The translations under genes and the position numbers were made by a program. Below are positions 47,687 through 50,547 of a DNA stretch of 64,000 bases, one piece after another. Where the stretch lies: positions 172,857-236,856 of the forward strand of contig CAWFWY010000018.1 in assembly GCA_963819625.1 (NCBI GenBank), read 5' to 3'. The stretch is from an uncultured Acidobacteriota bacterium (GTDB lineage Bacteria; Acidobacteriota; Terriglobia; Acidiferrales; UBA7541). Positions within the stretch are counted from its first letter, which is position 1. Each line of letters begins with the position of its first letter. The notes below the pieces were generated by a model. That model was given only the letters and a program-made list of their open reading frames with translations. It was not told the DNA's origin and searched no databases.

Positions 47687-48461
47687 ATGGCCCCCGTCAG
47701 CCCCCTTGCCGTACCGGATCTCCCGCCGGAAGTGCAAAAAGTTCTTGACGAATTTGTGCTTGCCACTAAACAAGCCTTTTCAGATCAGCTTATTTCGATA
47801 GTACTTTTTGGCAGCGCCCGCCGAAGGCAAGCTTCGACCAGCATCGGACGTCAATCTGCTGATTATTCTTTCGGCTTTCGAACAAGGACGTGCTGACCAC
47901 TTACGAGAACCGCTTCGAATCGCCGAATCTGCTGCCCAGCTTCGACCCATGATCCTGTTGCGCGAGGAAGTCTCCGTCGCCAGCCGTGCCTTTGCTCCAA
48001 AATTTGCTGATATTATTCGTCGTCGCGTAATTCTTTTCGGAGCCGATCCTTTTGCCTCTCTTTCGATTCCCAGGGACACCGAGATCCGCCAGCTAAAGCA
48101 GCAGTCCCTTAATCTGACTCTTCGTCTCCGCGCCGCCTACGTCGGGCGCAGCTTGCGCGAGGAGCAGCTGACTCGTTTTATTGCCACCAAACTGGGCGCA
48201 CTTCGCGCATTGTCGGCCGCTCTTCTGGAGCTCGAAGCCCGTCCGGGAATGTCCACTCAAGCCGCATTTCAATGCCTTGGCGGGGAACTCAAACTATCGC
48301 GATGGCCAGAAGCCCTGGCGCTGCTCACAGCGGTTCACGAAGGCCGTTTGCTCCCGCCGGGCTCAGCCGCTCAGGTTTTGTTTCAGCTTTTGGAATTTCT
48401 TCGCGGAGCGACGTTGCGGGTCGAAGCTTTGTCCTCCGAGGTACGTAGTGAATCCGTTTGA
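47687..48461 (+). CDS. Pol-beta-type nucleotidyltransferase-fold protein, one indel near 47818
   Basis: Joining ORFs 47687 and 47808 gives SIVLFGSA-AEGKLRPASDVNLLII (GS..DxN) followed by a helical C-terminal domain. Confidence 0.8.
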
Positions 48462-49395
48462 TCTCCACGGCCCAGAGTTTATTGTTTTTTATGTTTTTTT
48501 CGCTCTCGCCGTTCTGTCCGTGCTTTATCTTTCTCGCGGACTTGGTGGCAGTCGTGAGATCGCCAAACCCCCGATGGACGACCCTTATTTCGTCGCCTGC
48601 TTGCGGGGCGGTGAAAAAGAATGTGTGCGTGTTGCAATCCTCGCGCTCATCGATCGAGGTCTGCTCGCCGTCAAAAGCTCTGGCACGTCTATTCTTACCG
48701 CCGCCGCTATGGGCGAAAACCGATTGGAAGTCACCGATCCGCGGGCCATCTCAACTGTAAAGCGGCTAATCGAGAAAGAAATCTTGGAGGCCTTTCAGCC
48801 CTCCAGTCCGGTTACTTCCACGCTTGATTCTCTCCAGTACAGCTCCGCGTGTCGGGAGTACGCCAGGCGGCTGGAGCAACTGGGACTGGTCCACAAACAG
48901 AAAGTCCGCGACACGTTTCCGTATCGGATCTGGGTTGTCGTCGCGCTTTTTCTGGGTGTCGCGGTCATCAAAATATTTATCGCGCTGAGCCGCGGACGAA
49001 CCAACGCATTGTTTCTCATCATATTGGCAATACTTGCTTGCTTCGTTGCCACCCGCATCAACTCGCCTTTCCGAACTGCCAGCGGTGAGAAATTTCTGGA
49101 GAGTGTCCGTTCGCTGTTCTCCAATCTCAGGCTGCGTGCCCCCATGCTTCGTCCCGGAGGCGGTTCCTCCGACTTGACTTGGCTCGCAGCCACATTCGGC
49201 CTCAGTGCCGTACCGACTCTGGTTTTTCCGCACGTCCGCATGCTCATCGCACCCGTCGGAAGCCCTTCGGACTCGGGATCTTCTTTCTTCAACAAATCGA
49301 ACAATTCGTCTGGTGCTTTCAGCAGTTGCGGCAGCGGTTGTGGGAGTGGCTGTGGCGGTGGATGCGGTGGTGGCTGTGGAGGTTGCGGGAGCTGA
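48448..49395 (+). CDS. TIGR04222-type membrane protein with a Gly/Cys-rich C-terminal tail
   Basis: GTG start MNPFDLHGPEFIVFY; DPYFVACLRGG..VAILALIDRGLL; TM segments; ends SSCGSGCGSGCGGGCGGGCGGCGS. Confidence 0.85.
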   Translation: MNPFDLHGPEFIVFYVFFALAVLSVLYLSRGLGGSREIAKPPMDDPYFVACLRGGEKECVRVAILALIDRGLLAVKSSGTSILTAAAMGENRLEVTDPRAISTVKRLIEKEILEAFQPSSPVTSTLDSLQYSSACREYARRLEQLGLVHKQKVRDTFPYRIWVVVALFLGVAVIKIFIALSRGRTNALFLIILAILACFVATRINSPFRTASGEKFLESVRSLFSNLRLRAPMLRPGGGSSDLTWLAATFGLSAVPTLVFPHVRMLIAPVGSPSDSGSSFFNKSNNSSGAFSSCGSGCGSGCGGGCGGGCGGCGS

Positions 49396-49399
49396 TGTC

Positions 49400-50266
49400 A
49401 TGAACTCTCAAACAGATAGATTCGGACTGGGCTGGCGTCCCGAACTTGCCGCCGGCATTTTCGATCATCTCGACCAGATCGATCTGGTGGAAGTCATTAG
49501 CGACGATTACTTTGCCGCATCGCCAAGCGACATCCAGGCTCTAAAAACTCTCTCTTCGACCTTGCCGCTCGTGCTACACGGCGTCAGTATGGGTTTGGCT
49601 TCGACAGCGCCAGTGCAACAGCGTTGTCTTGACAGTATGGCCCGCCTCTGCCAGCAAGTGCGCCCCGAATTCTGGTCCGAACATCTCGCCTTCGTCCGAG
49701 CCGGAGGAATCGAAATCGATCACCTCGCGGCGCCCCCGCGTACTCCTCAAAATGTTGAAGCCACCGCCAACAATATTCTTCGCGCTGTCAAAGCAATTGG
49801 TTCAAAACCTCAATTGGAAAATATCGCCACTCTGATCGATCCTCCGGGGAGCCTTCTATCCGAACCGGCCTGGATTAACTCGATTCTCGGCGCTTCCGAC
49901 TGCGATCTGCTGCTTGATCTCCATAACGTCTTGGCCAATGGTCTGAATCTTGGCTACGATCCCTTCAGTTTTCTCGCTCAGATTCCACCTTCTCGGATTC
50001 GTTCTATTCACATTGCCGGCGGAAAATTTGTTTCCGCCCCCGATGGCAGCGCTCGCCTCCTTGACGACCATCTTCATGATGTACCGGACTCGGTCTTCGA
50101 TTTGCTCGAAGAGACCGCCGCCATTTCGCCCAATCCTCTCATCGTAATCCTGGAGCGCGATGGAGACTTTCCTTCCATGTCGGTATTGCTTTCGCAAATG
50201 CGTCAGGCACGTCAGGCTGTTACTCGCGGCCGGGCCGGAAGACTTAAAACCGCGGTGTCCGCATGA
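49400..50266 (+). CDS. DUF692 multinuclear non-heme iron-dependent oxidase (MNIO)
   Basis: GLGWRPE, LHGVSMGL, WSEHLAF, LENI, LLDLHN, HIAGG, DDH and LERD: the ordered His/Glu/Asp set of DUF692 TIM barrels. Confidence 0.93.
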   Translation: MNSQTDRFGLGWRPELAAGIFDHLDQIDLVEVISDDYFAASPSDIQALKTLSSTLPLVLHGVSMGLASTAPVQQRCLDSMARLCQQVRPEFWSEHLAFVRAGGIEIDHLAAPPRTPQNVEATANNILRAVKAIGSKPQLENIATLIDPPGSLLSEPAWINSILGASDCDLLLDLHNVLANGLNLGYDPFSFLAQIPPSRIRSIHIAGGKFVSAPDGSARLLDDHLHDVPDSVFDLLEETAAISPNPLIVILERDGDFPSMSVLLSQMRQARQAVTRGRAGRLKTAVSA

Positions 50267-50547
50267 ATGGCTCCGCGCTCGAATCGTTCTTGGCTTCCAT
50301 CTACGTGGATTGCGCAACCCGCGCTCGATTCATCGCAGATCCCTCTGGAGAAGCTATGCGAGCGGGTCTTTCTCCCGAAGAGTGTGCTTCGCTGGCCAGC
50401 TTGGACCCAAACAACCTAGAACTCGTGGCCCGTAGCCTGGCCCACAAACGTCAAGCCAAGCAACGCGCCAGAAAACTCGGTTTAGCCCAAAAACTTTGGC
50501 GAGCGGTACGCAGAAGATTCCGTGTCACTGAACTTTCTGACTCTTAA
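50263..50547 (+). CDS. 94-aa helical protein, putative MNIO partner
   Basis: ATGA overlap with the MNIO gene; LESFLASIYVD..RARFIADP..AGLSPEE..L..LD. Confidence 0.8.
   Translation: MNGSALESFLASIYVDCATRARFIADPSGEAMRAGLSPEECASLASLDPNNLELVARSLAHKRQAKQRARKLGLAQKLWRAVRRRFRVTELSDS

Follow-up and report, generated by a model that had tools for sequence, protein, structure and literature searches.

The window studied here, a 64,000-nucleotide stretch of contig CAWFWY010000018.1 from an uncultured Acidobacteriota bacterium, carries on its + strand, at positions 47687-50547, a cassette of four tightly packed reading units that all run in the same direction. As read from the sequence, they correspond to an ANT-like nucleotidyltransferase (NTase), a polytopic membrane protein of the TIGR04222 family with a Cys-rich tail, an enzyme of the MNIO (DUF692) family, for which this tail is the putative substrate, and a small protein of 94 aa (Table 1). 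An earlier note, written from the DNA letters alone, had placed the gene junctions at 48448/48461, 49395/49400 and 50263/50266, and the sequence bears them out. The stop codon of the NTase (TGA, 48459-48461) closes a 14-nt overlap with the membrane-protein gene, which starts with GTG at 48448. The latter ends at 49395, followed 4 nt downstream by the ATG of the MNIO gene at 49400, and the MNIO and small-protein genes overlap in the tetranucleotide ATGA (50263-50266). A scan for promoters and terminators returned counts no higher than in shuffled sequence.

Table 1. Features of the MNIO cassette and of the island that carries it (positions in the window)
Feature	Position	Strand	Basis or remark
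ANT-like (AadA/KNTase-type) two-domain NTase gene, frame broken	47687..48461	+	Open reading frames 47687-47896 and 47808-48461; motif GS...SDVNL
TIGR04222 polytopic membrane protein, 315 aa, GTG start	48448..49395	+	Match to the TIGR04222 model; transmembrane segments
Tail coding region, putative MNIO substrate (SS-CGSG-CGSG-CGGG-CGGG-CGG-CGS, six Cys)	49321..49392	+	Read from sequence
MNIO (DUF692) enzyme, 288 aa	49400..50266	+	PF05114; closest to BufB and HvfB, under both equivalog cut-offs
94-aa protein: NHLP/LigA-fold domain (residues ~1-65) and basic C-terminal helix; predicted MNIO partner subunit	50263..50547	+	Profile, model and complex prediction
Island of ~9.8 kb, IS30-family copy at its start, cassette at its end	40873..50651	.	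Synteny with four same-genus genomes
Imperfect inverted repeats at the island bounds	40873-40895 and 50629-50651		Core CGTAGTGGGTC
IS30-family transposase (HTH_38 + rve) copy	~40888-42147		At least 2 further 99% identical copies in the genome
Response-regulator diguanylate cyclase gene	42352-43704		Inside the island
PilZ-domain gene	50712-51218		Just outside the island

The MNIO enzyme matches PF05114 (MNIO/DUF692) with 220.9 bits, against a cut-off of 25, over model positions 2-261 of 263. Its metal-ligand positions H60, H95, E140, D173, H204, D222, H224 and E252 are invariant in 44 members of the clade, and the same ligand motifs align with the solved DUF692 structure 3BWW, in line with the earlier description of a DUF692 enzyme that has kept its metal-ligand motifs. 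By score, BufB and HvfB are the closest curated families, and the protein lies under the equivalog cut-offs of both (186.7 versus 310 for BufB, NF050167; 156.7 versus 360 for HvfB, NF003818). The clade is thus a relative of the Cys-to-heterocycle enzymes BufB and HvfB, yet separate from them. The literature describes the products of BufB/HvfB-type MNIOs as Cys-derived heterocycles that bind copper.

The membrane protein scores 98.3 bits against the TIGR04222 hidden Markov model (HMM; curated cut-off 43) and ends in ...SSCGSGCGSGCGGGCGGGCGGCGS, with six Cys within the last 22 residues; its reading as a TIGR04222-type protein with a six-Cys tail was thus correct. A Cys-bearing low-complexity C-terminal tail and an adjacent MNIO gene are the marks of the TIGR04222-MNIO cluster class described in silico (Microb Genom 2025;11:001462, PMC12452194), and the window displays both. 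Cys tails are present in 117 of 120 homologues of the membrane protein, among which Cys outside the tail are not conserved, and the tail end CGGCG[G/S] recurs in 63 of 70 genome loci. Since the 12-nt units coding the tail are only ~71% identical in DNA, this conservation is exerted at the protein level.

To describe the gene neighborhood, 80 loci were anchored on the alignment of the MNIO clade, with one genome per species, and genes were scored with HMMs built from our own alignments. Most loci belong to Acidobacteriota, the others to Verrucomicrobiota, Myxococcota, Burkholderiales, Chloroflexota and Bdellovibrionales. Wherever sequence was available, the TIGR04222 gene lies directly upstream of the MNIO gene (78/78) and the small-protein gene directly downstream (79/79), being fused to it in five loci. 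The earlier note had inferred that the MNIO acts on the Cys tail and had named conserved co-occurrence of Cys-tailed TIGR04222 genes with this MNIO clade as a check; run on these loci, the check succeeded without exception and, together with the recurrent tail motif, it strongly supports the tail as the likely substrate. Metagenome relatives with unrelated flanks keep the same order, namely a ~255-aa protein, a ~300-aa TIGR04222 protein, the MNIO and a small protein of 76-94 aa, with membrane proteins ranging from 87% to 38% identity to that of the window.

The NTase gene is found in 61 of the 74 genome loci and is missing from the other 13, in which no recurring replacement gene was found upstream; as it is moreover frameshifted in the window, the conserved core comprises three genes with a frequent fourth. 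Judged by eye, the presence of the NTase follows no clear pattern with respect to the tail ending. Any given flanking gene recurs in 11 of the 80 loci at most, and the recurring ones reflect synteny among close relatives. These flanks contain no exporter, protease or metal gene that is a conserved companion of the cassette, and the EamA gene located near the window cassette belongs to the conserved core synteny, which agrees with the earlier statement that the cassette includes neither exporter nor protease. No alternative Cys-bearing peptide was detected in the cassette or recurring in the flanks.

Three loci deserve a separate mention. A Bryobacteraceae genome (L089:2959-4982) harbors two tandem TIGR04222 genes upstream of the MNIO gene. 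In the metagenome locus L023, a cation-diffusion-facilitator (Cation_efflux) gene directly follows the cassette (L023:8482-9102), an arrangement not seen in other loci. The metagenome contig L022 contains a decayed copy (L022:6600-8273) with a truncated membrane-protein gene, an MNIO devoid of approximately residues 2-73, a metal-ligand His among them, and an intact small protein; this copy adjoins integrase, TrbC and T2SSE-like genes and a CPBP (Rce1-like) protease gene.

The window copy of the 94-aa protein gave sub-threshold matches only, to the NHLP-clan model NF038399 (Os1348; 26.1 versus 40) and to PF07746 (LigA; 17.2 bits versus 25.3). At an E-value of 0.01 or better, 76 of 84 family members match NF038399 and 65 match LigA, while 18 match TIGR04509, a model of NHLP-related peptides of the class that is made ribosomally and modified post-translationally (RiPP), and 16 match Frankia_peptide. 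A profile search of 1.84 billion representatives yielded 725 relatives, nearly all of 70-130 aa. Several of the longer ones are MNIO-small protein fusions, including a 366-aa fused representative, and in-frame fusions of this kind occur in five of the genome loci, in different lineages, with a linker of ~15-20 residues. In four of these five, the chain stops 3-10 residues past the small domain, which leaves no room for a core peptide.

The AlphaFold2 (AF2) model of the small protein (pLDDT 85.6) adopts the helical fold shared by NHLP and LigA proteins. Its top structural match is Os1348, with a Foldseek probability of 1.0 and a target-normalized TM score of 0.72 (VIA Z 7.2, root-mean-square deviation (rmsd) 4.2 Å over 73 residues), followed by SonA, a split-borosin precursor (VIA Z 6.6, rmsd 1.1 Å, 43 residues), and LigA (VIA Z 5.7, rmsd 1.3 Å, 46 residues). 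Compared with PDB sequences, the family profile also retrieved SonA and LigA chains (E ~7e-4). A relationship to DUF2063 was considered and rejected: hhalign gave a probability of 0.1% against 11 DUF2063 partners from bufferin-type clusters of the same genus, and the protein has no Pfam DUF2063 match. The structures 3DEE (NGO1945) and 8HI7 (TglI), taken as references for PME-type 2 partners (DUF2063-like by structure), were absent among the Foldseek and VIA-align matches listed, an absence that does not exclude likeness. Beyond the domain, the protein continues for a median of 12 residues (range 3-83) in an unconserved stretch composed of 41% K/R/H, with Cys in only 4 of 61 proteins; a Cys conserved among close relatives occurs in only 15 of 55.

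A complex between the MNIO and the small protein was predicted with an ipSAE of 0.91 in three of three runs, the best control reaching 0.00. At least 85% of the contacts agree between runs, and the pLDDT of the partner is 72-75. In a benchmark, 58 of 80 solved complexes attained this score mark, as did 2 of 110 mismatched pairs, counts that hold only roughly because the alignments were the study's own. Of the 13 nearly invariant residues in the small protein, 10 lie in the modeled interface; on the MNIO side, this interface takes in the stretch 98-114, which is clade-specific and nearly invariant. The small protein is thus predicted to bind the MNIO.

The NTase is the one gene for which the earlier count of four genes did not fully stand: the membrane protein, the MNIO and the 94-aa protein are intact, and the NTase is not one open frame. 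L023, the closest metagenome relative, is an 87-96% identical copy, with 96% identity over the NTase stretch, and carries an uninterrupted 257-aa NTase gene. Compared with it, the window carries an additional C within the run 47817-47819, and the resulting +1 frameshift splits the gene into the two reading frames of Table 1. With this extra base, the gene may truly be a pseudogene, or the metagenome-assembled genome (MAG) may contain an assembly error in a homopolymer. Scanned separately, the two fragments gave no match to PF01909, and the intact orthologue from L023 matches PF01909 with 27.2 bits (gathering cut-off 21).

The AF2 model of the intact NTase (pLDDT 91.1) gave full-length Foldseek matches to AadA/ANT(3'')(9), ANT(9) and KNTase (ANT(4')), with E-values of ~1e-6 and 11-18% identity, and a profile search against the PDB retrieved ANT(3'')(9) with an E-value of 1.7e-4. 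The cassette protein and these proteins have in common a two-domain build, with an NTase and a helical domain in ~255 residues. They differ, beyond the low identity, in the carboxylate pair of the catalytic motif hG[GS]...DxD of PF01909: GS is kept, and the second catalytic Asp is replaced by Asn. This DxN form was found in 117 of 117 homologues with a locatable motif (120 examined), among which many further polar residues are invariant. The cassette protein may be either an enzyme whose metal binding is altered or a pseudo-enzyme. Its context also differs, as the known enzymes act in drug resistance, in contrast to the protein maturation suggested by the cassette.

Regarding its topology, the window membrane protein has three strong transmembrane segments (residues 11-29, 161-179 and 186-204), a weak fourth hydrophobic segment (residues 243-261), a soluble domain of ~125 aa and the Ser/Gly/Cys tail. 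No match below E 0.18 was obtained for the soluble domain against PDB sequences. Across 119 homologues, an orientation with the N-terminus outside and the soluble domain in the cytoplasm places 13.9 K/R inside versus 5.0 outside, and this charge distribution favors that orientation. It is at odds with the published account, which describes a "large periplasmic domain" and places the tail in the periplasm (PMC12452194). As for the fourth segment, a Kyte-Doolittle hydropathy of 1.6 is reached in 48 of the 119 homologues, and 66 of them carry a charged residue within it. A cytoplasmic tail would make its modification by the MNIO straightforward.

The assembled genome (3.54 Mb, 71.65% complete) encodes one MNIO, one TIGR04222 protein and one small protein. 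Within this assembled part, neither DUF2063 nor DUF2282 was detected, nor was a canonical bufferin-type cluster of MNIO and DUF2063 genes. A different cognate precursor elsewhere in the genome would have spoken against the earlier note; the search for one returned no other candidate substrate in the assembled 71.65%. The cassette is present in none of 24 genomes of the same genus, where bufferin-type MNIOs (~25% identical) with DUF2063 partners occur (e.g., L111-L123). One genome of the same order (G031) contains a partial orthologue, and it contributes one row to alignments A1 and A3.

In agreement with the earlier assignment of the cassette to an accessory region, HAD-hydrolase and PilZ genes that are adjacent in four same-genus genomes are separated by ~9.9 kb in the window. 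The inserted island begins with an IS30-family copy, ends with the cassette and also carries GGDEF response-regulator, SnoaL, cupin and epoxide hydrolase genes. The window contains no further instance of its bounding inverted repeats, which chance would not be expected to produce; next to them lie direct repeats of similar sequence, AGCCGGAATGAAG and AGCCAAATGAAG. An attribution of the inverted repeats to the ends of the IS30-family element was rejected: a 98-99% identical copy located elsewhere lacks them, and the identity between copies begins ~15 nt inside the left repeat. An empty target site could not be located in the relatives, the intergenic DNA being too diverged. Further IS30-family copies lie at G000:C18:283203-284360 and G000:C5:36796-37737, in addition to several fragments, and the element looks recently active. 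The diguanylate cyclase gene of the island and the PilZ-domain gene next to it form a pairing that is not conserved with the cassette elsewhere.

Considered as a whole, these observations are probably best explained by a mobile cassette in which the MNIO and its small partner modify the Cys tail of the TIGR04222 protein. The cassette would be self-contained and horizontally mobile, consisting of the membrane protein, the MNIO and the small partner, usually with the ANT-like NTase as first gene. The MNIO would act as a cytoplasmic multi-iron oxidase, in a heterodimer with the 94-aa NHLP/LigA-fold protein. The latter would take the place of the DUF2063 partner of bufferin systems, which contains a RiPP recognition element (RRE), and in some lineages it has become fused to the C-terminus of the MNIO. 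This complex would oxidize Cys residues of the co-encoded protein, in its conserved Ser/Gly/Cys tail (...CGGGCGGGCGGCG[S/G]). With BufB and HvfB as a guide, 5-thiooxazole-type heterocycles would be the most likely products, and the outcome would be a membrane-anchored array of groups able to bind thiophilic, copper-type metals.

Several points weigh against this interpretation. The earlier note knew of no biochemical characterization of this arrangement, and our literature searches agree, as they found no paper with biochemistry on the TIGR04222-MNIO class. The chemistry of the MNIO could differ from that of BufB and HvfB, since it scores under both equivalog cut-offs. The complex score expresses the confidence of a model and is not a measurement. 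The membrane side of the tail hinges on the weak fourth segment, and if the tail were periplasmic, a cytoplasmic oxidase could act on it only before translocation. The earlier note had suggested a possible role in metal or oxidative stress handling; the flanking genes provide no consistent link to metal homeostasis. Finally, if the frameshifted NTase is required, the window copy is dead; its three core genes are undamaged, and the cassette is naturally found in three-gene versions as well.

The tail could also be the substrate of another chemistry, yielding oxazolone-thioamides, excision of a beta-carbon, cross-links or an oxidative C-terminal cleavage releasing a small Cys/Gly peptide; in the last of these, the membrane protein would serve as a very large leader. 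The sub-cut-off scores of the MNIO are compatible with this, as is the diversity of the family in the literature, where hydroxylation, cleavage, amidation and macrocyclization are described, and the invariant tail end CGGCG[G/S] suggests that the distance to the C-terminus matters. We nevertheless consider it unlikely, given that the closest families by score convert Cys to heterocycles and that the cassette has neither a protease nor an exporter as a conserved neighbor. A related proposal, which we regard as doubtful though slightly less so, is a split RiPP system: the NHLP leader-like domain would have been freed from its core to become an activating subunit of the MNIO, either on its own or fused to the enzyme, the core would be carried in cis by the membrane protein, and the NTase would nucleotidylate the Ser-rich tail or its heterocycles, a role that is only a guess. 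The product would then be a permanently membrane-anchored metallophore array and not a secreted peptide, because its core is borne by a polytopic membrane protein. It is highly improbable that the 94-aa protein is itself the RiPP precursor, combining a leader domain with a core at its C-terminus. Such a role would follow the example of PflA/PosA (Os1348), an MNIO substrate (bioRxiv 10.1101/2025.10.30.685615), and it would suit the matches of the family to the Os1348, TIGR04509 and Frankia_peptide models and Os1348 as best structural match. However, the extension that would have to contain the core is short, basic and unconserved, Cys is scarce in it, four of five MNIO fusions end right after the domain, and the conserved residues fall in the predicted enzyme interface; on the first three of these grounds, the small protein was rejected as a precursor candidate.

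Two further explanations dispense with tail modification. The tail might be an unmodified thiolate site for a metal or an Fe-S cluster, the membrane protein a scaffold, sensor or metal donor, and the MNIO directed to something else. Poly-Cys/Gly tails are able to bind metals without modification. In addition, a third of the genomes that encode TIGR04222 have no MNIO, and there are TIGR04222 proteins devoid of Cys (PMC12452194). This seems quite improbable for the present clade, whose members adjoin a Cys-tailed TIGR04222 gene in all 78 loci, and for which neither another Cys peptide in the cassette or its flanks nor another precursor family in the assembled genome was found. The window copy might alternatively be a decaying passenger of the mobile island, devoid of function, as suggested by the frameshift in the NTase, by its location in the island together with an IS30-family element and by the clearly decayed copy L022 in another mobile context. 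We hold this to be rather unlikely: the three core genes are intact and keep all conserved residues, 13 of 74 loci naturally lack the NTase, and one surplus base within a run of C may stem from faulty assembly of the MAG.

If the complex of MNIO and small protein does modify the tail, the cassette combines features of several known systems. With the bufferin-type systems BufA/BufB/BufC and HvfA/HvfB/HvfC it shares the MNIO ligand set, the nearest family by score, Cys-rich substrates and the expected copper-binding heterocycles. It differs from them in its putative substrate, the end of a polytopic membrane protein without signal peptide instead of small Sec-exported peptides or proteins, and in its partner, an NHLP/LigA-fold domain instead of DUF2063-RRE. 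The pairing of an NHLP-clan domain with an MNIO recalls PosA/PflA (Os1348), in which the NHLP-type precursor is modified by the MNIO-nitroreductase PflD/PosD with no separate partner (bioRxiv 10.1101/2025.10.30.685615). There, the domain is the leader of the substrate; in the present cassette, no conserved core follows it, and some loci have it fused to the enzyme. The split borosin SonA/SonM and the LigAB dioxygenase, with its LigA, likewise have this small helical fold bound to an enzyme, but these enzymes are a methyltransferase and an extradiol dioxygenase, not an MNIO, and SonA is also the substrate.

The idea that the tail is the substrate has already been published. The in silico study of 2025 proposed the Cys-rich C-terminus of TIGR04222 proteins as the MNIO substrate, a proposal not tested there, and noted the absence of DUF2063 (PMC12452194). 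The window cassette is a member of the clusters it describes, with a Cys-tailed TIGR04222 gene adjoining a bufferin-near MNIO gene and no DUF2063 gene. That study finds "PME-type 2" (DUF2063-like) partners in 10% of clusters or more and many clusters without a partner gene, in contrast to the loci analyzed here, where all 79 with available sequence encode an NHLP/LigA-fold small protein that hhalign does not relate to DUF2063. In its text and in the supplements examined, NTase, LigA and NHLP are not mentioned. What the present analysis adds is the universal NHLP/LigA-fold partner, with its fusions and predicted complex, the ANT-like DxN NTase, the invariant tail end, the doubt about topology and the carriage on a small island in this genome. 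The window itself adds little beyond one more member of the class, whose core of only three genes makes testing easy.

MNIOs are known to mature small peptides that are secreted, methanobactins and bufferins among them. If the modification of the TIGR04222 tail is true, an enzyme of this family decorates a full-size integral membrane protein, and a leader-like NHLP domain has taken over, as a subunit of the enzyme, from the usual DUF2063-RRE partner. The MNIO family would thereby gain a wider substrate range and a wider recognition logic, and a membrane-anchored metal-binding device would be defined that is common in soil Acidobacteriota, Verrucomicrobiota and Myxococcota.

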